Source: Candidatus Methylomirabilota bacterium
GTDB taxonomy: Bacteria; Methylomirabilota; Methylomirabilia; Rokubacteriales; CSP1-6
NCBI GenBank assembly: GCA_035635755.1
Contig: DASQAK010000264.1
Span: 1-35,852, forward strand
DNA length: 35,852 nucleotides
Direction: 5' to 3'
A model generated the notes under the pieces. That model had not been told where the DNA came from. It saw only the letters and a program-made list of their open reading frames with translations, and made no database searches. This document shows, in pieces, positions 2,765-32,692 of the stretch. Each line of letters opens with the position of its first letter. The stretch's first letter is position 1. Both the position numbers and the translations under genes were made by a program.

Positions 2765-3823
2765 TCAGCGCGCCCCCGTCACGTCGACACGGACGCGCGC
2801 GGGCGAGTCCTGCGTCACCGCGATGGTGACGTCGAGGAACTGCCGGATCACCTCGATATTGGTGGCGCTGTGGCTGGAAAGCGGCAGGGTGTGGAAGCTG
2901 CCCCCGCCCGCCAGGCTCAACGGCACGAGGAGCTGGTCGGCCAGATAGGCGCCCACGGGCACTTGGGCCGCCATGTACTCGCGCGCTTCCTTGACGACGC
3001 GCTCGGCCACGGCCTCCGCGCGGACGTCGACCTCTCCGAATCCCGTGAAGAGCTCGGTCACGTGCTCGCTCTCGATCTCGATGATGATGACATTCCCCGG
3101 TCCCGGGGACGCCTGCGGCAAGTCTGACTCTTCCGGATCCTCCGCCTTGAGCACGAGGACCTCGACTTCTTCCGGCGTCCAGCCCATCCTCCGGAGCACC
3201 ACCTTGATCTCGCGGTGGCCAATGTTGCCGGGGAGATTCGCCACGACGGCCTGGGCCCGGCGGCGCTTCGTCTCGCCTCGGTCGAGCAGATTCAGGGCCT
3301 CGAGGCGCCGGCACGGCGTGATCTTCACCTGGAACCTTCCGCCGCCCGCCGGATAGAATCCGTAGCGCTCCAGCTCGGCGTGCACGGGTGCGCCCATCCG
3401 CTCGAGCAGGGGCAGGAAAGCCCGAGCGAGAAAATCGAAGGGGGGCGCCCACGGATTGTGCGTCCCCCCCTCGAGGACGAGGGTGGATGAAGCACTCGCG
3501 GTCAGGAGCGGGGGCAGTATGGTCTGCAGCACGAGACTGGCGCTTCCCGCCGTTCCCACCGCGAACCGATAGGCGCCCGGGCGCACCGAGCGCGGACGGA
3601 ACACGACCTCCTGCGAGCCCAGCTCGGCGCCGTCGACGAGCGCGTTGCCTACCTCGGTGGCGGCGTTCACCGCCGTCAGGTGCTGACGGAGAAGCCCCGG
3701 CTTGGCCCGTCCCGCCCGGACCTTCTCCATGCGAAAGGGCGTTTCCGTGACGAGCGAGAGGGCGAGGGCGCTGCGGAGGATCTGCCCGCCGCCCTCGCCC
3801 CGCGATCCGTCGATCAGCAGCAT
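2765..3823 (-). CDS. rtcA: RNA 3'-terminal phosphate cyclase RtcA.
   Basis: 352 aa. N-terminus MLLIDGSRGEGGGQILRSALALS matches the RtcA hallmark (E. coli ALDGAQGEGGGQILRSAL). AAGGGG SD upstream. Starts 5 nt after the rtcB stop. Confidence 0.9.
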   Translation of the reverse strand: MLLIDGSRGEGGGQILRSALALSLVTETPFRMEKVRAGRAKPGLLRQHLTAVNAATEVGNALVDGAELGSQEVVFRPRSVRPGAYRFAVGTAGSASLVLQTILPPLLTASASSTLVLEGGTHNPWAPPFDFLARAFLPLLERMGAPVHAELERYGFYPAGGGRFQVKITPCRRLEALNLLDRGETKRRRAQAVVANLPGNIGHREIKVVLRRMGWTPEEVEVLVLKAEDPEESDLPQASPGPGNVIIIEIESEHVTELFTGFGEVDVRAEAVAERVVKEAREYMAAQVPVGAYLADQLLVPLSLAGGGSFHTLPLSSHSATNIEVIRQFLDVTIAVTQDSPARVRVDVTGAR

Positions 3824-3827
3824 GGCG

Positions 3828-5054
3828 TTACCCCTTGACGCAGACGACCTGACGAAGCGTGTGCACGATCTCCACGAGGTCCTTCTGTGCCTCCATCACC
3901 GCGTCGATGGACTTGTAGGCTCCCGGCGTTTCGTCGATGACATCCGGATCCTTCCGGCACTCGATGCCCGCCGTCGCCTCCACGTGATCGGCCACCGAGA
4001 AGCGTCGCCTGGCCTCGGTGCGCGACATGGCCCGCCCCGCCCCGTGGCTGCAGCTGTGGAAGCTTTCCGGGTTGCCCTTCCCGCGCACGATGTACGACCG
4101 CGCCCCCATGCTGCCCGGAACGATCCCGAGATCGCCCTCGCGGGCTCTCACCGCCCCCTTGCGCGTGAGGAGCACGTTCTTGCCGTAGTGAAACTCCCGC
4201 GCCACGTAGTTGTGGTGGCAGTTCACGGCCTCCACGCCCGCCGCGAAGGGCGGAAGGCCGGGCACGGAGCCCACGGCGGCCACGATGGCGCTCATCATCA
4301 GGCGGCGGTTGGTCATGGCGAAGCTCTGGGCCCACTCCACCGCCTCCACGTACTCCTTGAAGTGGTCGGTCCCCTCCGGCAGATATGCCAAGTCCTCGTC
4401 CGGCAGGTTGATCATCCACTTGCGCATGTCCTTCTTCGCCAGCTCGATGAAGTAGCTGCCGATCTTGTTTCCCACACCGCGCGACCCGCTGTGCAGGAGG
4501 AACCACACGCGCTCGCCCTCGTCGAGACAGACCTCGATGAAGTGATTGCCCGTGCCGAGGGTGCCCAGGTGGGTCTGATGGTTCGAGTGCCCCACCGCGG
4601 CGTGCTTGGCCACGATGGCGTCGAAGCGGGGCTTCAATCCGCTCCAGGCCTCCACGGCCGGCGGGGGCGGCGTGTGCCACGAGCCCTTGTCGCGGCCCCG
4701 GGGCGTACGGCCGTGCGGCACCGCGGCTTCGATGGCGGAGCGCACCCCGCGCAGGCTCTCGGGCAGATCGCTCGCCGTCAGGGTCGTCTGCATCGCCATC
4801 ATGCCGCAGCCGATGTCCACGCCCACCGCGGCCGGGATGATGGCGCCCACCGTGGGGATGACGCTGCCCACGGTGGCCCCGATGCCCCAATGCACATCGG
4901 GCATGGCCGCCACCCACTGATGGATGAACGGCATGCGCGCGACGTTGGCGAGCTGCTTGGCCGCGGCCTCCTCGATGGGGACGCCGCGCGTCCAGGCCTT
5001 GATGGGGACGCCGCCCTCGGGGTGAATCACGTCGTACGAGCGCTCACTGGACAT
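3828..5054 (-). CDS. rtcB: RNA-splicing ligase RtcB (3'-phosphate/5'-OH RNA ligase).
   Basis: MSSERSYDV...MPFIHQWVAAMPDVHWGIGATVGSVIPT...GVDIGCGM matches RtcB family signatures. GAGGGAGA SD precedes the internal ATG at 5054. Track ORF 3828..5069. Confidence 0.9.
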   Translation of the reverse strand: MSSERSYDVIHPEGGVPIKAWTRGVPIEEAAAKQLANVARMPFIHQWVAAMPDVHWGIGATVGSVIPTVGAIIPAAVGVDIGCGMMAMQTTLTASDLPESLRGVRSAIEAAVPHGRTPRGRDKGSWHTPPPPAVEAWSGLKPRFDAIVAKHAAVGHSNHQTHLGTLGTGNHFIEVCLDEGERVWFLLHSGSRGVGNKIGSYFIELAKKDMRKWMINLPDEDLAYLPEGTDHFKEYVEAVEWAQSFAMTNRRLMMSAIVAAVGSVPGLPPFAAGVEAVNCHHNYVAREFHYGKNVLLTRKGAVRAREGDLGIVPGSMGARSYIVRGKGNPESFHSCSHGAGRAMSRTEARRRFSVADHVEATAGIECRKDPDVIDETPGAYKSIDAVMEAQKDLVEIVHTLRQVVCVKG

Positions 5055-5859
5055 GGTCGTCTCCCTCAATGTGAGTCGGCTCCGGGCCGGCCGGCTCCCC
5101 TCGACGCCCTTGCGATTCGCGGTCGAGGGGCAGCACCGAGCCCGGCAGGCCGAGCACGATCGTATTCTTTCCGTTGGCGACCGCCTGCAGCGTCTTCATG
5201 GTCAGGAGCGCCGGATTCCCCTCGAGCATGCGGGCCGCGTTCGCGAGCTGGCGAAGCGAGGCCGTTTCCCCGCGCGCGCGCTCGAGCGCCGCCTCCGATG
5301 CCTTCCGGGCTTCCACGACCTGGGCGAAGATCTGCTTGAGCGGAGTCGGGAACGTCACGTCCTTGATCCCCACGGTTTCCAGCTCGAGCCCGAGGACGGC
5401 CGCCTTGGCCTCGAGTCCCGCGCGCAGCTGGGCGGCCAGCTCGCCCCGTCGCTCCAGCAGGGTCTCCACGGCCACCGTGGACACGAGGTCGCGCAGTACG
5501 AGCTGCGCCTCCAGGTACAGCGTGTCCGCGAACGACTGCACCAGCTCCGTCGCCACCTCGGGACGGACGACCCGGTAGCGCAGGGCGAGAGTGATCCGCA
5601 GGGCGACGTTGTCGGCCGACAGGATCTCCTGGCCCGCCACCACCGCGAGCCGCGAGCGGACATCGACGATCTGCACGGCGGCGAAGGGCCGCCACATCCA
5701 GTGCAGCCCCGCGTCGAGCGTCCGGGACAGCCGGCCCGCGCGATAGAGAAGCCCCTTCTGGTAATCGTAGATCACGATCCTGAGGATCACGAAGCGGTTC
5801 AGCACCAGGATCATGGGCACGCCTACGGCCACGATCGCCAGCATGTCGGTCAGTGTCAT
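5044..5859 (-). CDS. SPFH/band-7 (stomatin/prohibitin-like) membrane protein; first gene of the rtcBA operon.
   Basis: N-terminal TM helix (MTLTDMLAIVAVGVPMILVL) followed by an SPFH-like core and a coiled-coil tail. AGGAGA SD 6 nt upstream of ATG at 5859. Its 3' end overlaps the rtcB start by 11 nt. Confidence 0.75.
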   Translation of the reverse strand: MTLTDMLAIVAVGVPMILVLNRFVILRIVIYDYQKGLLYRAGRLSRTLDAGLHWMWRPFAAVQIVDVRSRLAVVAGQEILSADNVALRITLALRYRVVRPEVATELVQSFADTLYLEAQLVLRDLVSTVAVETLLERRGELAAQLRAGLEAKAAVLGLELETVGIKDVTFPTPLKQIFAQVVEARKASEAALERARGETASLRQLANAARMLEGNPALLTMKTLQAVANGKNTIVLGLPGSVLPLDRESQGRRGEPAGPEPTHIEGDDHVQ

Positions 5860-5974
5860 TGCGCATCTCCTCATTTGTAAGGACCCCTGCCCGACGGGCC
5901 CGCCTCTGGCGGGGAGATCGAAGATCTCCTCAAGGCCAGGGCAGCGGAGAGGCTTGCGCCTCCGATGCCCGCGG

Positions 5975-6150
5975 GGCAGGGGGATCGGGGATTCGAACCC
6001 CTTTTACGGAGGCGGCCGGGCCGAGCGTGGAACGTCGCCCGGACGAATCGCCGGACTCGCCACCGAGCCCGACCGCTGATTGCCCATGTTCCTTCCAGGG
6101 GGGTCACGGCCCCGCTTCGCCGTGACCCCCCACGCTCCTTGCCGACTAGG
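5975..6150 (-). ncRNA. Highly structured 5' leader of the sigma54-driven SPFH-rtcB-rtcA transcript, containing a tRNA T-arm mimic (GGGG-UUCGAAU-CCCC). Possible tRNA-like or Y-RNA-like regulatory RNA module.
   Basis: Minus-strand RNA carries a perfect 12-bp GC hairpin (6089-6122), a canonical T-stem-loop GGGGUUCGAAUCCCC (5987-6001) and a GGAGAUC-UUCG-GAUCUCC tetraloop hairpin (5923-5939). It sits between the predicted sigma54 promoter and the first CDS. Confidence 0.3.
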
Positions 6151-6159
6151 CATCCATAG

Positions 6160-6176
6160 AGCACGAGCCGTGCCTC
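6160..6176 (-). promoter_or_regulatory. Candidate sigma54 (-24/-12) promoter of the rtc operon.
   Basis: Minus-strand AGGCACGGCTCGTGCT versus consensus TGGCACG-N4-TTGCW. GG and GC have the correct 12-nt register. It lies between rtcR and the operon and is oriented toward SPFH-rtcBA. Confidence 0.5.
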
Positions 6177-6223
6177 CTGACCGTACCTGGAGGGTCGACT
6201 GGAACACTTTGGAAAGTAAGGAA

Positions 6224-6285
6224 TTGAGCTAGCTACCGGCTTCCTCTAGGTCCAGATCCTAGATGAGAAGCTAATGAGCTAGCGG
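6224..6285. promoter_or_regulatory. AT-rich divergent control region with repeated palindromic TGAGCTAGC boxes (candidate RtcR upstream activating sites) and the rtcR promoter.
   Basis: Two copies of TGAGCTAGC (6225-6233, 6275-6283) lie 50 bp apart. They contain the AGCTAGCT/GCTAGC palindromes. CTAGG-N7-CCTAG lies between them. Local GC is ~50% versus ~70% background. Confidence 0.3.
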
Positions 6286-6297
6286 ATAATATCGGGC

Positions 6298-7884
6298 ATG
6301 CGAACGGTGGTGATCGGATTCCTTGGAACGACTCTCGACCGCGGTGGCCAGAACCGCTGGGATCCGTGGCGACCCTCGGTGGATCTGTGCCGTCACGAGG
6401 ACCTGGTGGTCGGGCGCTTCGAACTGCTGAGCCAGGTCCGGTCCCGGGGGCTCGCCAACGAAGTCACCGCCGACATCCTGTCGGTCTCGCCGGAGACCGA
6501 GGTTCGAACCCACGACCTCGAATTCAGGGACCCCTGGGACTTCGAGGAAGTGTACGGGGCGCTCCTCGATTTCGCCCGGGCCTATCCCTTCAAACCGGAC
6601 GAAGAGAGCCACCTCGTCCACATGACCACGGGCACGCATGTCGCGCAGATCTGTCTCTTCCTGCTTGCCGAGTCACGAGAAATTCCCGGGCGGCTCATCC
6701 AGACGTCTCCGCCCCCCCGGCGCCGCGGCGTGGAGCCGGGCACGTACGCGATCATCGACCTCGACCTGTCCAAGTACGACCGGCTGGCCTCGCGATTCCA
6801 GGCGCGGCATCGCGAGGACCTCTCGTATCTCAAGTCCGGCATCGACACTCGCAACGCCGGGTTCAACAGGCTCATCGAGCGGATCGAGCAGGTGGCCATC
6901 GCCTCACAGTCGCCCCTGCTCCTCATGGGCCCGACGGGCGCGGGCAAGGCGCAGCTCGCGCGACGGATCTACGAGCTGAGGAAGGCCCGCCGCCAGGTGG
7001 AAGGCGCCTTCGTTGAGGTCAACTGCGCCACCTTGCGCGGGGATGCCGCGATGTCCGCCCTCTTCGGGCACGTCAAGGGCGCGTTCACGGGCGCCCTGCA
7101 GCCTCGCCCCGGTCTCTTGCGCACCGCCGATAAGGGCATCCTCTTCCTGGAAGAGATCGCAGAGCTGGGCTCCGACGAGCAGGCCATGCTCCTGCACGCG
7201 CTGGAGGAGAAGCGATTCCTGCCCATGGGCACGGACCGCGAGGTGCACAGCGACTTTCAGCTGATCGCAGGAACGAACCGGGATCTGGGCGAGGCCGTCC
7301 GGGCTGGCCGTTTTCGTGACGACCTGTTCTCCCGCATCAACCTGTGGACGTTTCGCCTGCCCGGCTTGCAGGAGCGCGTCGAGGACCTCGAGCCGAATCT
7401 CGAGTACGAGCTCGACCAGTGGGCCGTCCAGCAGGGCCGCCGCATCACCTTCAACAAGGAGGCCCGCGAGGCCTTCCTGCGCTTCGCGACCTCGCCCGAC
7501 GCTCTGTGGACGGCGAACTTCCGCGACTTCAACGCGGCCATCGTGCGGATGGCGACGCTGGCCGCGGGCGGGCGCATCACCACCGAGATCGTGCGGGACG
7601 AGATCGCCCGGCTCAAGGCTCTCTGGGAACCCGCGAGCGCCGGGACGACCGATGACGCGCTGAGCCGCTTCGTCGATGCCGCCAAGCTGGCGGAGCTCGA
7701 TCACTTCGACAGGGTCCAGCTCGCCGAGGTCCTGCGCGTGTGCGCGCGGTCGCGAAGCCTTTCCGATGCCGGTCGTGCCCTCTTCTCCGTGTCCCGGCAC
7801 CGCCGCTCGACCACCAACGACGCCGACCGGCTGCGCAAGTATCTGGCCCGGTTCGGGCTGGCCTGGCAGGATACTCAAGCCTGA
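6298..7884 (+). CDS. rtcR: Sigma54-dependent transcriptional activator RtcR (CARF-like N-domain + AAA+ with GAFTGA + C-terminal HTH region).
   Basis: 528 aa. Walker A GPTGAGKAQLARRIY. GAFTGA motif (GHVKGAFTGALQ). N-terminus MRTVVIGFLGTTLDRGGQNRWDPWRP resembles E. coli RtcR. Divergent from rtcBA. Confidence 0.9.
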   Translation: MRTVVIGFLGTTLDRGGQNRWDPWRPSVDLCRHEDLVVGRFELLSQVRSRGLANEVTADILSVSPETEVRTHDLEFRDPWDFEEVYGALLDFARAYPFKPDEESHLVHMTTGTHVAQICLFLLAESREIPGRLIQTSPPPRRRGVEPGTYAIIDLDLSKYDRLASRFQARHREDLSYLKSGIDTRNAGFNRLIERIEQVAIASQSPLLLMGPTGAGKAQLARRIYELRKARRQVEGAFVEVNCATLRGDAAMSALFGHVKGAFTGALQPRPGLLRTADKGILFLEEIAELGSDEQAMLLHALEEKRFLPMGTDREVHSDFQLIAGTNRDLGEAVRAGRFRDDLFSRINLWTFRLPGLQERVEDLEPNLEYELDQWAVQQGRRITFNKEAREAFLRFATSPDALWTANFRDFNAAIVRMATLAAGGRITTEIVRDEIARLKALWEPASAGTTDDALSRFVDAAKLAELDHFDRVQLAEVLRVCARSRSLSDAGRALFSVSRHRRSTTNDADRLRKYLARFGLAWQDTQA

Positions 7885-9049: not shown

Positions 9050-10168
9050 ATGGGATCCGGTGCACCGCTGCCCCGACGGCCTTATTTCCTGACGCGCTAC
9101 GATGATGTCGCCGCTGTCTATCGTGACCATGCGCGGCTCTCCTCCGACAAGAAGGTCGAGTTCAAGCCGAAGTTCGGTGACGCTCCGCTCTTCGAGCACC
9201 ACACGGCGAGCCTGGTCTTCCGCGACCCGCCCGATCACACGCGTCTCCGCCGCCTCTTTGCCGCCGCCTTCACTCCCAAGGCCCTGGCCGCGCTACGGCC
9301 CCGCGTCGTCCGCTTGGTCGATGGCATGCTCGACCGCGCGCAGAGCCAAGGCGGGATGGACCTCATCGCCGACTATGCCTTCGCCCTGCCCGTCGAGCTG
9401 ATCGGCGACATGCTGGGGGTGCCGCGGGCCGACCGCCCGCGACTGCGCGACTGGTCGCTGGCCATCCTGGGCGCGCTGGAGCCCGTGCCCGGAACTGAGC
9501 GCCTCGACAAGGGCAATCGCGCCGTGGAGGAGTTCAAGGCCTTCCTGCGCGCGCTGTGCGAGGACAGGCGCCGCCATCCGCCCCTCGATGACGACGACGA
9601 GGTGCTGAGCAAGCTCATGGCCGCCGAGGACGAGCAGGGAGCCTTGAGCGAGATCGAGCTCTTGCATCAGTGCGTCTTTCTCTTGAACGCGGGGCACGAG
9701 ACGACGACCAATCTGATCGGCAATGGGGGGCATGCGCTGCTCGAACATCCCGGCAAGCTCCGGCGGCTGCAAGACGATCCATCGCTGATCGAGGCGGGCG
9801 TGGAGGAGTTCCTGCGCTACGAGAGCTCTAACCAGCTGGGCAATCGCCGCGCCCTCGCCGACGTCGAGATCGGGGGCGTGGCCATGCCGGCCGGCACCCT
9901 CATCACGCTCTGCATCGGCGCGGCCAACCGGGACCCCGCCCAGTTCCCGGAGCCGGACCGCCTCGACATCACGCGCACGCCCAACCGGCATCTCGCCTTC
10001 GCGACGGGCATCCATGCCTGCGCGGGGATGTGGCTGGCACGCATGGAGGGGCAGGTCGCCATCGGGCGGCTGGTGCGCCGCTTTCCGAAGATTCGGTCGG
10101 CGGGGCCCGTGGTGCGTGGAGGGCGCGCCAGGTTTCGCGGGCTGGCGCAGTTCCCGGTGGGCGTGTAG
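9050..10168 (+). CDS. Cytochrome P450. The N-terminal ~55 codons lie in another frame at 8925..9092, indicating an apparent 1-nt frameshift near 9083-9088 (pseudogene or sequencing error).
   Basis: P450 Cys-ligand loop FATGIHACAGMWLA. ETTT I-helix motif AGHETTTN. ExxR motif. Upstream frame encodes MDGTIIAGDDESERQAALAFDLLRLELGFLEDPFPIYHRQRRWDPVHRCPDGLIS*, the expected P450 N-terminus. Confidence 0.7.
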   Translation: MGSGAPLPRRPYFLTRYDDVAAVYRDHARLSSDKKVEFKPKFGDAPLFEHHTASLVFRDPPDHTRLRRLFAAAFTPKALAALRPRVVRLVDGMLDRAQSQGGMDLIADYAFALPVELIGDMLGVPRADRPRLRDWSLAILGALEPVPGTERLDKGNRAVEEFKAFLRALCEDRRRHPPLDDDDEVLSKLMAAEDEQGALSEIELLHQCVFLLNAGHETTTNLIGNGGHALLEHPGKLRRLQDDPSLIEAGVEEFLRYESSNQLGNRRALADVEIGGVAMPAGTLITLCIGAANRDPAQFPEPDRLDITRTPNRHLAFATGIHACAGMWLARMEGQVAIGRLVRRFPKIRSAGPVVRGGRARFRGLAQFPVGV

Positions 10169-10191
10169 GCTTCCTCCAGGAGGGCACAGCC

Positions 10192-11502
10192 GTGGACAAA
10201 TTCGAATACTTCAGCGGCATTCCCGAGGTCGGCATCGTCCCTCGGGCGCCCCATGCCGGTCCGCTCCTCCGCCATGTCTATGAGCAGGAGCTGGGCCGCG
10301 GCGGCTTTGCGGGGAAGGTGACGCACACCTATCACCTCTACCCGCCCAACAACTGGCTGCCCGACGAGACCAAGACGCTCGAGGGCGCCGCCTGGGCGCC
10401 CCACTGGGATTCGCCGCTCCGGGACGTCGGAGGGACGCATCACGCGCTCGGCACCATCGAGCCCGCGGCCACGGGCGACGTCTATCGCGGCATGGCGCGG
10501 CTGATCGCCAACGCCACGGTGGCCATGAACGTGACGGCGCCCGGCGCATCCATGGACTACTTCTTCGAGCATCATGGCGCCACCCTCGTCTTCTTCATCC
10601 ACCAGGGCTCGGGCACGCTGGAAACCCTGCTCGGCCCCATCGCGTATCGGCGCGGGGATTTCCTCATCGTGCCGAAGGGGCTGACGCATCGCTTCGAGCT
10701 GGGCCCCGGGCCGCACTACTACTGGGTCTACGAGAGCTTCACGGGCGACCCGGAGAAGGCCGAAGCCGTCACCACGGGGCAATTCCTGACGCACAGCCGG
10801 AGCGACTACAAGTTTCCGCGCTCGCTCGAGACGCGCAACGAGGCGGGCCGCTTCGAGATCGTGTCCAAGGTGGGCGGGAGCTACACGCGGCGCGTGCACC
10901 CGACGCACCCCTTCGACGTGGTCGGGTGGCGCGGCACGTATCTGCCCTACCGCTTCGCGGTGGAAGACGTCCGTCCCCTCGTGGCGGACCGCTCGCACGT
11001 GCCGCCCTCGGGGCATACGGTGTTCATCCTGCCCGGCTGCTACATCTGCGTCTTCACCGTGCGCTCCGCCGAGAAGGAAGGGCTCTGGGTGCCCTTCTTC
11101 CACAAGAACCTGGATTACTGTGAGACGCTCGGCTATCACTCAGGACAGTTCTTCAGCCGGGGCGGCGTCTTCACCGAAGGCATGGTCTCCGTCCACCCGG
11201 TGGGGCTGCCGCATGGTCCGCATCCCACCGCCCTCAAGGCTCTGCTCGACGGCAAGCGCCCGGAGCGCTTCGAGGAAGTGGGAATCATGGCTGACTTCGC
11301 AAACCCGGCGCAGATCTCCGACTTCGCGCTGGGGATCTCGCGCCCCGACTACATGAAGACCTGGTCGGGCTATGTGTCCGACCCGCGCTTCCAGCACAGC
11401 CCGACCCGGCTCGGGGACGTCCAGGCGGCCGCGGAGAGCGTGGCCGACGTGCGCGACGTGCTCAGGCCCAAGGGCTCGGAGGGCGAGGCAGGCTCGCTCT
11501 GA
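10192..11502 (+). CDS. Homogentisate 1,2-dioxygenase family protein (HmgA-like cupin ring-cleavage dioxygenase).
   Basis: C-terminal FFHKNLDYCETLGYHSGQF...GMVSVHPVGLPHGPHP aligns with the HmgA FHRN...SLH..M.PHGPD region. The N-terminus is divergent. AGGAGGG SD 7 nt before GTG at 10192. Track ORF 10030..11502 extends 5' over the P450 end. Confidence 0.7.
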   Translation: MDKFEYFSGIPEVGIVPRAPHAGPLLRHVYEQELGRGGFAGKVTHTYHLYPPNNWLPDETKTLEGAAWAPHWDSPLRDVGGTHHALGTIEPAATGDVYRGMARLIANATVAMNVTAPGASMDYFFEHHGATLVFFIHQGSGTLETLLGPIAYRRGDFLIVPKGLTHRFELGPGPHYYWVYESFTGDPEKAEAVTTGQFLTHSRSDYKFPRSLETRNEAGRFEIVSKVGGSYTRRVHPTHPFDVVGWRGTYLPYRFAVEDVRPLVADRSHVPPSGHTVFILPGCYICVFTVRSAEKEGLWVPFFHKNLDYCETLGYHSGQFFSRGGVFTEGMVSVHPVGLPHGPHPTALKALLDGKRPERFEEVGIMADFANPAQISDFALGISRPDYMKTWSGYVSDPRFQHSPTRLGDVQAAAESVADVRDVLRPKGSEGEAGSL

Positions 11503-30778: not shown

Positions 30779-31651
30779 ATGCCGAAGCTGAAGAATCCGC
30801 GCGAAACGACGTCGCCGCCTGCCCCTTCGCGGCCGGACTGGATCATCGCGGGGCTGGCGCTCGTCGGACTCGCCGTCGCCGGCTACCTGACCGCGCTCAA
30901 GCTCGGCGGCAACCAGGCCTTCCTCTGCCGCGACGGCAGCGGCTGCGACATCGTTCAGGCCAGCCGGTACTCGCTCCTGGCCGGCGTGCCCACCGCTCTC
31001 TGGGGCGCGGCCGTCTACGCCGCCATCCTCGTCCTGAGCGTGATACCGCGGACCGTGCGGCGCTGGCAGATGGCCTTCATGCTCGCCGCGGCCGCCGTCG
31101 CCTTCTCGATCTACCTCACGTACCTGTCGATCTTCGTGATCGGCGCCACCTGCCGGTACTGCCTCGCCTCGGGCGCCATCTCCGTCCTGCTCCTCGTGAC
31201 CATGCTCGTGAGGCGGCCCGTGGCCCAGGGGCGGGCTGCCCAGGCCTATACCCTGAAGCGGCTGGCCGGGCTCGGCATCACCGCGGGAGTGGCGGCCGTG
31301 CTCGTCGGCGCCTTCATCTTCGCCGCCGATTTCTCCACCCCCGCGGGCTACCAGGTCGCCCTCGCCGAGCACCTCAAGAGGAACCAGGCCATATTCTATG
31401 GCGCCTACTGGTGACCCGCGTGCAAGGAGCAAAAGGCCCGGTTCGGGTCTGCCGCCGACCGCTTGCCGTACGTGGAGTGCAATCCCCTCGGGGATCACAA
31501 GACCCTCGATGAGCGCTGCGTGAAGGCGGGCGTACGCGCCTATCCCACCTGGATGATCAACGGCCAGAAGCACGAGGGCGTGCTCACGCTCGAGCGTCTG
31601 GCCGAGCTTTCCAAGTTCCGCTACACGGCTCAAGCGGGGGCCACGCAGTGA
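30779..31651 (+). CDS. VKOR (vitamin K epoxide reductase)-thioredoxin fusion protein with in-frame TGA (31412-31414) at the first Cys position of the Trx CxxC motif; candidate selenoprotein (W-U-P-A-C).
   Basis: Track ORFs 30779..31414 (VKOR TM domain, ends ...FYGAYW*) and 31463..31651 (Trx-like ...YVECNPLG...GVRAYPTWMINGQ) are in the same frame, separated only by the TGA. Codons after the TGA read PACKEQKARFG, the conserved VKOR-Trx WCxxCxxQK context. GAGGG SD before 30779. Confidence 0.6.
31422..31466 (+). other. SECIS-like stem-loop immediately downstream of the in-frame UGA.
   Basis: Lower stem GCAAG/CUUGC. Upper stem AGGCCCG/CGGGUCU. Apical loop GUU lies 27 nt after the UGA, within the 16-37 nt window typical of bacterial SECIS. 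Confidence 0.3.
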
Positions 31652-31717: not shown

Positions 31718-32692
31718 ATGGGAAGTCGATCTCGACCCCGCCGCTCACGACGCCGCGCAGTCACCGTGAGCCGCCGCGGCAAGCGTTCCCCGCGACCGAC
31801 CGCGCGTAAGGCTGGGGCCCGCAGGAAGGCGGCCCGCGGGCCGGCCGCCTTCAAGAACCCCGGCCTCGTGGTGAGCACTGAGTGGCTGGCCTCGAATCTC
31901 GAACACCCCCGCGTGCGCGTTGTGGACGGCACCTGGCACATGCCGCAGCTGCAGCGGGACGCGCGACGGGAATTCGAAGAGGCGCATGTCCCGGGGGCCG
32001 TCTTCTTCGACATCGACGCGATCGCCGACCGCACCACGGCGCTTCCCCACATGCTCCCCACACCGGCGGAGTTCTCGCGTCACATGGGCGCCCTCGGCCT
32101 GTCGAGCAATGACTTCATCGTGGTCTACGACACCCGGGGCGTGGTCAGCGCCGCGCGCGTCTGGTGGACCTTCCGGGCCTTCGGGCACGACCGGGTGGCC
32201 GTGCTCGACGGCGGGCTCAGGAAATGGAAGGCGGAGAACCGTCCCCTCGCCACGGGCGCGGCCACGCCCGCGGCCCGTCGCTTCCGCGCCAAGATCCGGC
32301 CGGCCCTCGTGCGCGGGATCGAGCAGATGGGACGCAACATCGAGACGCGGCGTGAGCAAGTGCTGGACGCTCGCTCGCGCGGCCGCTTCTATGGCACCGA
32401 GCCCGAGCCGCGCCAGGGGCTTCGCGCGGGCCATATCCCGGGCAGCTTCAACCTCCCCTATGACATGCTGTACCGGCCGGACGGCACGCTTCTCCCTCCC
32501 GAGGGGCTCAAGGAGGCCTTTCGCGAGGCGGGACTCGATTCGCGCAAGCCGGTGGCGACCACCTGCGGGTCGGGGGTGACGGCTTCAGTCCTGGCCCTCG
32601 GCCTCCACGTGATCGGGCACAAGAAGGTCGCGGTCTATGACGGCTCGTGGACGGAGTGGGGCGGCCGCGCCGACACGCCGGTCGAGCTCTGA
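31718..32692 (+). CDS. sseA: 3-mercaptopyruvate sulfurtransferase (tandem rhodanese domains) with an Arg-rich ~50-aa N-terminal extension.
   Basis: Active-site CGSGVTA (MST-type CG[ST]GVT). Two rhodanese domains. Strong AAGGAGG SD 10 nt before ATG 31718. Confidence 0.8.
   Translation: MGSRSRPRRSRRRAVTVSRRGKRSPRPTARKAGARRKAARGPAAFKNPGLVVSTEWLASNLEHPRVRVVDGTWHMPQLQRDARREFEEAHVPGAVFFDIDAIADRTTALPHMLPTPAEFSRHMGALGLSSNDFIVVYDTRGVVSAARVWWTFRAFGHDRVAVLDGGLRKWKAENRPLATGAATPAARRFRAKIRPALVRGIEQMGRNIETRREQVLDARSRGRFYGTEPEPRQGLRAGHIPGSFNLPYDMLYRPDGTLLPPEGLKEAFREAGLDSRKPVATTCGSGVTASVLALGLHVIGHKKVAVYDGSWTEWGGRADTPVEL

Follow-up and report, generated by a model that had tools for sequence, protein, structure and literature searches.

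Does the TGA codon at positions 31412-31414 of a 35,852-nucleotide stretch of DNA from Candidatus Methylomirabilota bacterium (assembly GCA_035635755.1, contig DASQAK010000264.1, 68.9% G+C; the whole stretch is called the window below) end a gene, or is it read as an amino acid in the middle of a longer one? An open reading frame (ORF) of 211 codons runs on the plus strand from an ATG at 30779 to the C-terminus ...NQAIFYGAYW, directly followed by this TGA, and it encodes a membrane domain of the vitamin K epoxide reductase (VKOR) family (residues 1-211, 30779-31411). Beyond the TGA the same frame is open for 78 more codons (PACKEQKARFGSAADRLPYVECNPLGDHKTLDERCVKAGVRAYPTWMINGQKHEGVLTLERLAELSKFRYTAQAGATQ), whose translation begins PACKEQKARFGSAADRLPYVECNPLG and later includes ...YPTWMINGQ..., up to a second TGA at 31649-31651. 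An earlier reading of these letters (the original prediction) had proposed that the first TGA encodes selenocysteine (Sec) and links VKOR with a thioredoxin (Trx)-like domain; its coordinates, its translation and the same-frame continuation into Trx-like sequence through to 31649-31651 were all reproduced here, and each check at the level of sequence that it had suggested turned out in its favor. Our answer, to which we give a probability of about 0.88, is that 30779-31651 is a single gene of 290 codons plus stop, predicted to encode a five-helix VKOR (a quinone reductase resembling vitamin K epoxide reductase) fused to a Trx-like domain in the periplasm, with Sec in a U212-P-A-C215 redox motif. 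The UGA at 31412-31414 would then specify Sec212, the first (exposed) residue of that motif, and the Trx-like domain would comprise residues 213-290 (31415-31648), with resolving Cys215 (31421-31423), Cys234, Cys247 and the cis-Pro motif YPTW. The true stop is the TGA at 31649-31651, and relatives stop at the equivalent place.

The behavior of this codon in relatives carries much of the argument. A protein database search with the read-through protein gave 440 matches, and lengths and coverage were examined for the best 120 of them. These 120 homologues (72-96% identical) are proteins of 204-222 residues, apart from two outliers of 254 and 262, and they cover 58-76% of the query, matching only the residues up to the UGA; in every case, therefore, the gene caller had ended the protein at this codon. 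The DNA of two related loci, L001 (about 75% identical) and L005 (96%), reads W-TGA-PACKEQKARFG and then continues in frame into a conserved Trx domain, and W-TGA-P-x-C with a conserved Trx domain is present in each of loci L001-L005. A scan of species-representative genomes with two peptide patterns, one of which held the Cys so that Sec forms were under-sampled, found 80 loci in which the aligned codon is TGA in 7, TGC or TGT in 73, and TAA or TAG in none. All 7 of the stop-containing loci, found through the pattern that left this codon unspecified, carry TGA; they come from Methylomirabilota/Rokubacteria (L009, L010, L015 and L016), a genome binned as Thermodesulfobacteriota (L012), Myxococcota (L056) and SAR324 (L060). 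Metagenome contigs scanned with the DNA pattern TAYGGNGCNTWYTGGTGACCNNNNTGY (Y-G-A-[FY]-W-TGA-P-x-C), which offsets the under-sampling of Sec forms, added at least 120 contigs, every listed one of which is a VKOR gene with W-TGA-P-x-C and an in-frame Trx continuation; the Methylomirabilota-type loci are mostly from soil metagenomes. The original prediction placed the TGA at the first, nucleophilic Cys of a CxxC motif, and it was right to do so: the aligned column is an invariant Cys in the 73 homologues with TGC or TGT. Other invariant columns surround it on both sides (F206, Y207, G208, W211, C215, K219, F222, G223, P230, Y231, E233, C234, C247, Y255, P256 and W258).

In 132 of 133 TGA-type loci the frame after the TGA remains open, for up to 95 codons (about 70-95 on complete contigs, about ten of the 133 loci being cut by a contig end), and the sequence downstream shows purifying selection. 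The single exception, L173 (oriented offset about 908, 0-based), loses downstream similarity after 14 codons (PACKDQKARFGSAARPARG...), and is likely to reflect a frameshift, an assembly chimera or a real pseudogene.

These data dispose of the simplest alternatives. It is vanishingly improbable that a TGC was misread as TGA during sequencing or assembly, or that TGA is reassigned genome-wide, since the same TGA occurs in more than 120 independent assemblies from different projects, most genes of the window and most TGA-type VKOR genes (whose true stops are TGA, TAG or TAA) end in TGA, and only one other in-frame TGA in the whole window is flanked on both sides by sequence of coding-type base composition; it marks an ordinary boundary, between a rhodanese gene and a following gene that starts at its own ATG four codons further on. 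It is also very improbable that the TGA is a real stop, leaving a 211-residue VKOR followed by Trx-like sequence that is either a separate gene or the decaying remnant of a fusion. Current annotation favors that view: GenBank HYR41347.1 (Methylomirabilota bacterium, an organism name that two neighboring proteins of the window also bear) is exactly the 211-residue ORF, called VKOR protein and ending at the TGA, JGI and GenBank alike annotate a 211-residue VKOR-family or uncharacterized membrane protein, and some gene callers add a hypothetical ORF of 56-62 residues that starts at the TTG of LPYVEC. However, the 17 codons between the TGA and this TTG, the first possible restart, are among the most conserved of the protein (P-x-C-x-E-Q-K-x-x-F-G), and a product starting at LPYVEC would lack not only the redox motif but also the fold's first strand and helix. 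About 130 sequences, some with as little as about 40% identity, preserve the frame, the length and the invariant residues, with a ratio of nonsynonymous to synonymous substitution rates (dN/dS) below 1, and a remnant would gather frameshifts and stops, whereas only L173 among the 133 loci diverges. A separate downstream Trx gene with its own start, the arrangement that the original prediction had named as its contrary, was found in none of the orthologues. In our view the data from relatives exclude that the codon is a real stop or a sequencing error, and that the gene is split or a pseudogene.

If the UGA is a sense codon, a signal for its recoding might be expected close by, and the original prediction had pointed to a hairpin just downstream as a possible bacterial selenocysteine insertion sequence (SECIS). 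Counting the U of the UGA as position 1, the hairpin AGGCCCG-GUU-CGGGUCU (31434-31450) has a 7-bp stem (23-29/33-39) and the loop G30-U31-U32 (31441-31443), or alternatively a five-nucleotide loop G-GUU-C (31440-31444); it sits within the coding sequence for K-A-R-F-G-S, its loop begins 26 nucleotides after the UGA, and its calculated free energy is -9.2 kcal/mol. According to the published consensus, a bacterial SECIS element (bSECIS) has a loop of 3-9 nucleotides, a stem of 4-16 bp, a distance of 16-37 nucleotides from the UGA and a free energy of -7.5 kcal/mol or lower (PMC13188914); the first two positions of its loop include a G, after which G or U is usual (PMC13188914, quoting the Zhang and Gladyshev model). 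The window's hairpin agrees with 4 of 4 consensus properties, its loop, stem, spacing and free energy all lying within the published values. Rfam, which has no model for bacterial SECIS elements of this kind, reported nothing relevant in the whole window at gathering thresholds or in 31350-31560 at E values up to 10.

Comparison with Methylomirabilota-type relatives (clade A) bears out the upper part of the predicted structure. Among 80 distinct clade A sequences, pairs 24-28/34-38 form in 80 of 80, and pair 25-37 is G-U in 40, G-C in 38 and A-U in 2. The lower stem that had also been predicted, GCAAG/CUUGC, is present in the window, but only 30-40% of the 80 relatives can form three of the five base pairs, and we do not count it as part of the conserved element. 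Synonymous entropy in clade A (86 sequences) collapses at codons +7 to +12, where AAG (83/83), GCC (82/84), CGG (83/83), TTC (86/86), GGG (86/86) and TCT (45/46) are essentially frozen; flanking codons show 0.8-2.1 bits of synonymous entropy, and Gly elsewhere in the gene is mostly GGC. The same codons vary in the 73 Cys-type genes, where Lys is AAG in 37 and AAA in 24, Gly is GGC in 45, GGA in 8 and GGG in 7, and Leu uses six codons. Nucleotides 13-45 fold at -7.6 kcal/mol in Cys forms and at -13.5 kcal/mol in Sec forms (P = 4e-20). These comparisons of aligned genes indicate that the hairpin is under RNA-level selection, and in the TGA forms only. A TGA with a conserved hairpin downstream is thus found in close and distant relatives alike, and the UGA is very probably, and perhaps almost certainly, a sense codon whose recoding the hairpin directs.

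A second group of TGA-type genes, clade B, comprises 30 distinct sequences from SAR324, Myxococcota and unbinned metagenome contigs, and has the motif W-U-P-[AST]-C-x-E-Q-K-D-L-F-E-A-S. Its hairpin, GAACAGA-AGNN-UCUGUUC, has a 7-bp stem at nucleotides 16-33 with an A-G-N-N loop, and pairing is found in 100% of the sequences; the codons CAG, AAG, GAT and CTG are each invariant (29/29), and the stem variants are a G-C to A-U double change in one sequence and an A-U to G-U change in four. The two clades thus form their hairpins from different codons of one peptide, those for K-A-R-F-G-S in clade A and those for E-Q-K-x-L-F in clade B. In clade A the sequence GAGC (nucleotides 16-19, 31427-31430) could pair with GUUC (nucleotides 30-33, 31441-31444), which corresponds to the outer part of the clade B stem. 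The shared E-Q-K...F coding sequence may therefore provide a latent complementarity from which two SECIS hairpins were possibly built. In a rough neighbor-joining tree the two Sec clades lie at opposite ends with about 65 Cys forms between them, and Cys-type Rokubacteria stand at the base of clade A. Because the Sec clades are apart in this tree and their hairpins differ, the data suggest at least two independent switches between Cys and Sec. Rokubacteria-like VKOR-Trx genes were also seen in oddly labelled metagenome-assembled genomes (MAGs), namely a Nitrosotalea sp. (an archaeon; L011, Cys), a Thermodesulfobacteriota (L012, Sec) and a Candidatus Limnocylindrales (P0051), and these labels suggest mis-binning or lateral transfer.

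What protein would result from read-through? A Pfam search with Cys written at the TGA matched VKOR (PF07884) at residues 21-141 with 92.9 bits (cut-off 27.5) and Thioredoxin (PF00085) at residues 204-263, spanning the TGA, with 19.9 bits, which is under the cut-off of 23.5. Residues 21-280 of the read-through product align with a crystallised protein of Synechococcus, the VKORC1/thioredoxin domain protein (4NV2, 4NV5, 4NV6 and 3KP9; E 1.6e-46), and its C-terminal part matches the structure of the isolated Trx-like domain, 3KP8 (E 9e-26). The downstream sequence is thus the Trx-like domain typical of bacterial VKOR fusions, as had been proposed. Hydropathy shows five hydrophobic segments (about residues 19-44, 66-91, 98-125, 125-146 and 161-189). 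Cysteines are found at 50, 56, 125, 128, 215, 234 and 247, with the TGA at 212; the loop cysteines Cys50 and Cys56 are encoded at 30926-30928 and 30944-30946, and the Cys125-x-x-Cys128 active site in the fourth transmembrane helix (TM4) at 31151-31162. The four relay cysteines (50, 56, 125 and 128) are kept in 91-92 of 92 Sec-type and in 73 of 73 Cys-type sequences. HMMER aligns the TGA at 212 with Cys209 of 4NV2/3KP9, the residue that in the crystal of the Synechococcus enzyme is disulfide-bonded to loop Cys50 (PMC4555152, summarising Li et al. 2010).

The residue that occupies position 212 is the next question. The motif at this position differs between the two kinds of gene: the Sec forms (n=98) are UPAC in 85, UPSC in 6, UPTC, UPVC and UPGC in 2 each and UPHC in 1, and the Cys forms (n=73) are CPHC in 39 and CPAC in 14, with others making up the rest. 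His at the third position is thus found in 40 of 73 Cys forms and in 1 of 98 Sec forms (raw counts that ignore kinship), and the closest Cys relatives of both Sec clades carry it. In DsbA-type oxidants the His of C-P-H-C tunes the thiolate of the reactive Cys; a selenolate might do without such a thiolate-tuning His.

A quite unlikely alternative is that the UGA is recoded through the same hairpin as Cys, by a tRNA of the tRNA(ReC)/SelC* type, so that the product is an ordinary CxxC VKOR-Trx. Such tRNA(ReC)-type tRNAs occur in about 13-17% of surveyed genomes, and insertion of Sec and of Cys at a SECIS-dependent UGA are indistinguishable by bioinformatics alone (PMC13582414), which holds for the present tests as well. 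However, Cys insertion leaves unexplained the loss of His in 97 of 98 TGA forms against its presence in 40 of 73 Cys forms, and it would have a costly UGA plus SECIS kept in over 100 diverged sequences with no evident gain over TGC. Many predicted selenoproteins have also been reported for this phylum: one Methylomirabilota MAG has 63 predicted selenoprotein genes (PMC13188914), and Methylomirabilota are among the nine phyla with Sec-type group 4 hydrogenases (PMC13582414). The probability of about 0.88 that we assign to the whole reading is also the one that we attach to Sec as the residue at 212.

Several observations weigh against Sec at this position, and selenium in the protein is itself a prediction made from aligned sequences. 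In clade A the median dN/dS 3' of the hairpin is only moderately low, at 0.42 (it is 0.22 in clade B), because dS is near saturation and variable C-terminal tails were included. As a single sequence, 31412-31480 folds unexceptionally for its G+C-rich composition (z = -0.63, 48 of 200 shuffles folding as well), so that the case for the hairpin rests on the comparison with relatives. In that comparison the stems hardly vary, which leaves little classical covariation (clade A shows three pair types at a single pair, clade B a single compensatory change), and the Cys-form set is phylogenetically broader than the Sec set, which somewhat inflates the contrast in synonymous variation. Finally, no selA, selB, selD or tRNA-Sec was found within the 35.9-kb window or in 1.9 Mb of related loci: ARAGORN reported no tRNA-Sec in the window or in 206 related sequences, tblastn with approximate E. 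coli SelA, SelB and SelD queries gave no match in the related loci (which are small pieces of many genomes), and Pfam annotation of the window gave no selenium-related genes.

Indirect support for selenoproteins in this phylum also comes from the contig of locus L014 (CAWGVS010000006.1, from an uncultured Candidatus Rokubacteria MAG), which carries on its minus strand an AhpC/TSA gene (PF00578, E 1e-27) with an in-frame TGA at plus-strand coordinates 4140-4142. Its product would read ...HRSADW-U-PFCKTQL..., a hairpin GCAGCUC-GUC-GAGCUGC lies 17-33 nucleotides downstream of the TGA, and by its sequence the gene looks like a member of the known Prx-like UxxC selenoprotein family. The L014 genome carries a Cys-type VKOR-Trx besides this candidate.

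If Sec is indeed inserted, the following mechanism might be expected. SelB with Sec-tRNA(Sec) would bind the hairpin at 31434-31450 and deliver Sec to the UGA. The Trx-like domain, judging from its Synechococcus homologue, would oxidise cysteine pairs of exported proteins: Sec212, in the place of Cys209, would form a mixed bond with the substrate and then a selenylsulfide with loop Cys50, and electrons would pass by analogy from Cys50/Cys56 to Cys125/Cys128 of TM4 and on to a membrane quinone. Sec is more nucleophilic than Cys, ionised at neutral pH and a better leaving group, which could make the exchange steps faster. Failed decoding would release a 211-residue VKOR without its Trx partner.

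This last step raises a further alternative, which we think unlikely: that the UGA is a selenium-dependent switch, giving full VKOR-Trx with selenium and a stand-alone five-helix VKOR without it, both of them functional. In bacterial Sec decoding, termination is the default at a Sec-UGA when Sec-tRNA is limiting. The truncated product keeps all four VKOR cysteines and the fifth transmembrane helix, and VKORs with a fifth helix and without a Trx domain are known in actinobacteria (PMC4555120). On the other hand, no separate DsbA-like partner gene was seen adjoining the VKOR gene. A switch of this kind would extend the explanation by Sec insertion rather than replace it.

The VKOR-Trx gene is directly followed by a gene for a two-domain rhodanese (3-mercaptopyruvate sulfurtransferase-like, with an active-site Cys; 31718-32692, plus strand). 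The two adjoin in loci L001-L005 and in 23 of 62 clade A loci, but in 0 of 15 clade B loci; this is subclade synteny without a fixed operon, and we do not adopt a functional link. Read from its annotated ATG, the rhodanese has an unusual N-terminus rich in Arg, and its relatives are annotated with 250-274 residues. Elsewhere in the window an RNA repair cluster (2765-7884) consists of genes on the minus strand for RtcA (RNA 3'-phosphate cyclase, 2765-3823), the RtcB ligase (3828-5069) and a Band 7/SPFH protein (5044-5874), with the sigma-54 activator RtcR divergent from them on the plus strand (6298-7884). A P450-like ORF (9050-10168, plus strand) matches only the C-terminal half of the Pfam model, and it overlaps by about 140 nucleotides an ORF with weak homogentisate dioxygenase/cupin matches (10030-11502, plus strand); the starts of the two are uncertain. 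Pfam also identifies cupins, DoxX, an aminotransferase, an enoyl-CoA hydratase, an isochorismatase and an enolase-superfamily gene, and by synteny with L001 and L005 the window further contains GlnD, an SLT transglycosylase and an MsrPQ-like pair.

Has VKOR been recorded as a selenoprotein before? The original prediction had noted that it is not commonly listed as one. VKOR/PF07884 is absent from Table 1 of a May 2026 review, which covers 119 families and subfamilies of prokaryotic selenoproteins and which its authors call the most comprehensive inventory (PMC13188914); Deng et al. 2026 (Cell Rep 45:116760), Haft and Tolstoy 2025 and the BSepDB tables lie outside this comparison. Neither the paper on BSepDB nor that on deep-Sep, with its supplements, speaks of VKOR, and the same is true of the GOS, Olavius and ISME J 2016 studies and of a 2022 review. 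The 2015 phylogeny of the VKOR family makes no mention of selenocysteine, and full-text searches for VKOR together with SECIS or selenoproteome led only to papers on ferroptosis and nutrition. In NCBIfam release 20 no model claims the protein: the best matches are VKOR models, all under their cut-offs, and no selenoprotein model matched. Possibly, with the odds against it, the family is already recorded under another name, and homology-based pipelines may have counted the C-terminal domain as "thioredoxin". We regard it as a selenoprotein family that is probably unlisted; with its UxxC motif in a thioredoxin fold it is of an ordinary kind and involves no new principle.

Taking all of this together, and with less assurance than for Sec at 212 itself, we lean toward the view that the family is unlisted and supplies the first selenoenzyme known from the VKOR/DsbB-type pathway, in which disulfides are generated at the membrane and linked to quinone, that it is common among Methylomirabilota of soil and SAR324/Myxococcota-like bacteria of marine or sediment habitats, and that it arose at least twice from Cys ancestors, each time with a different SECIS in the same coding stretch and with loss of the CPHC His. 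A bolder extension would make the UGA a selenium-dependent switch between stand-alone VKOR and VKOR-Trx as well. Hundreds of relatives are likewise listed in truncated form, and their catalytic partner domain and predicted selenium site are missing from the databases. If our interpretation is correct, a membrane-embedded, quinone-coupled disulfide-forming enzyme joins the selenoproteome, and selenium use in Methylomirabilota (Rokubacteria) is linked to the oxidative folding of proteins in their cell envelope. Two SECIS hairpins over one peptide, close Cys forms as natural controls, the change from CPHC to UPAC and a crystallised homologue would together make a clean test case for the advantage of Sec over Cys in a disulfide oxidant and for the evolution of a SECIS within coding sequence that is itself constrained.

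The candidate may be compared with three known systems. Like the E. coli fdhF-type SECIS and the consensus bSECIS, the VKOR element is a coding-region stem-loop right after the UGA with a small apical loop in which G is followed by U or G, and it shares with the consensus a spacing within 16-37 nucleotides and a free energy below -7.5 kcal/mol; its sequence is unrelated to that of the fdhF SECIS. With the UxxC thioredoxin-fold selenoproteins (Trx PF00085, DsbA-like form 1, DsbG-like, thiol:disulfide interchange protein and Prx-like; PMC13188914, Table 1) it shares a predicted Sec at the position of the N-terminal nucleophilic Cys of CxxC, common Cys-type homologues and a bSECIS immediately 3', and several of those families are also extracytoplasmic disulfide enzymes. 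None of them, however, is fused to or annotated as VKOR, whereas a VKOR membrane domain is fused here, and unlike the stand-alone Sec-thioredoxin (PF00085) the Trx-like domain forms the C-terminal part of a 290-residue membrane protein and scores below the PF00085 cut-off. The closest parallel in architecture is Synechococcus VKOR-Trx, in which a four-helix core with the periplasmic loop pair Cys50/Cys56 and a CxxC in TM4 is followed by a fifth helix and a periplasmic Trx-like domain (PMC4555152). The product predicted here has the same layout and the motifs W-x-P-x-C-x-x-Q-K, LPYVEC and YPTW in common with it; the two differ in that the equivalent of Cys209 is a UGA here, that the motif is U-P-A-C rather than C-P-H-C, and that a putative SECIS hairpin lies inside the coding sequence just 3' of the UGA.

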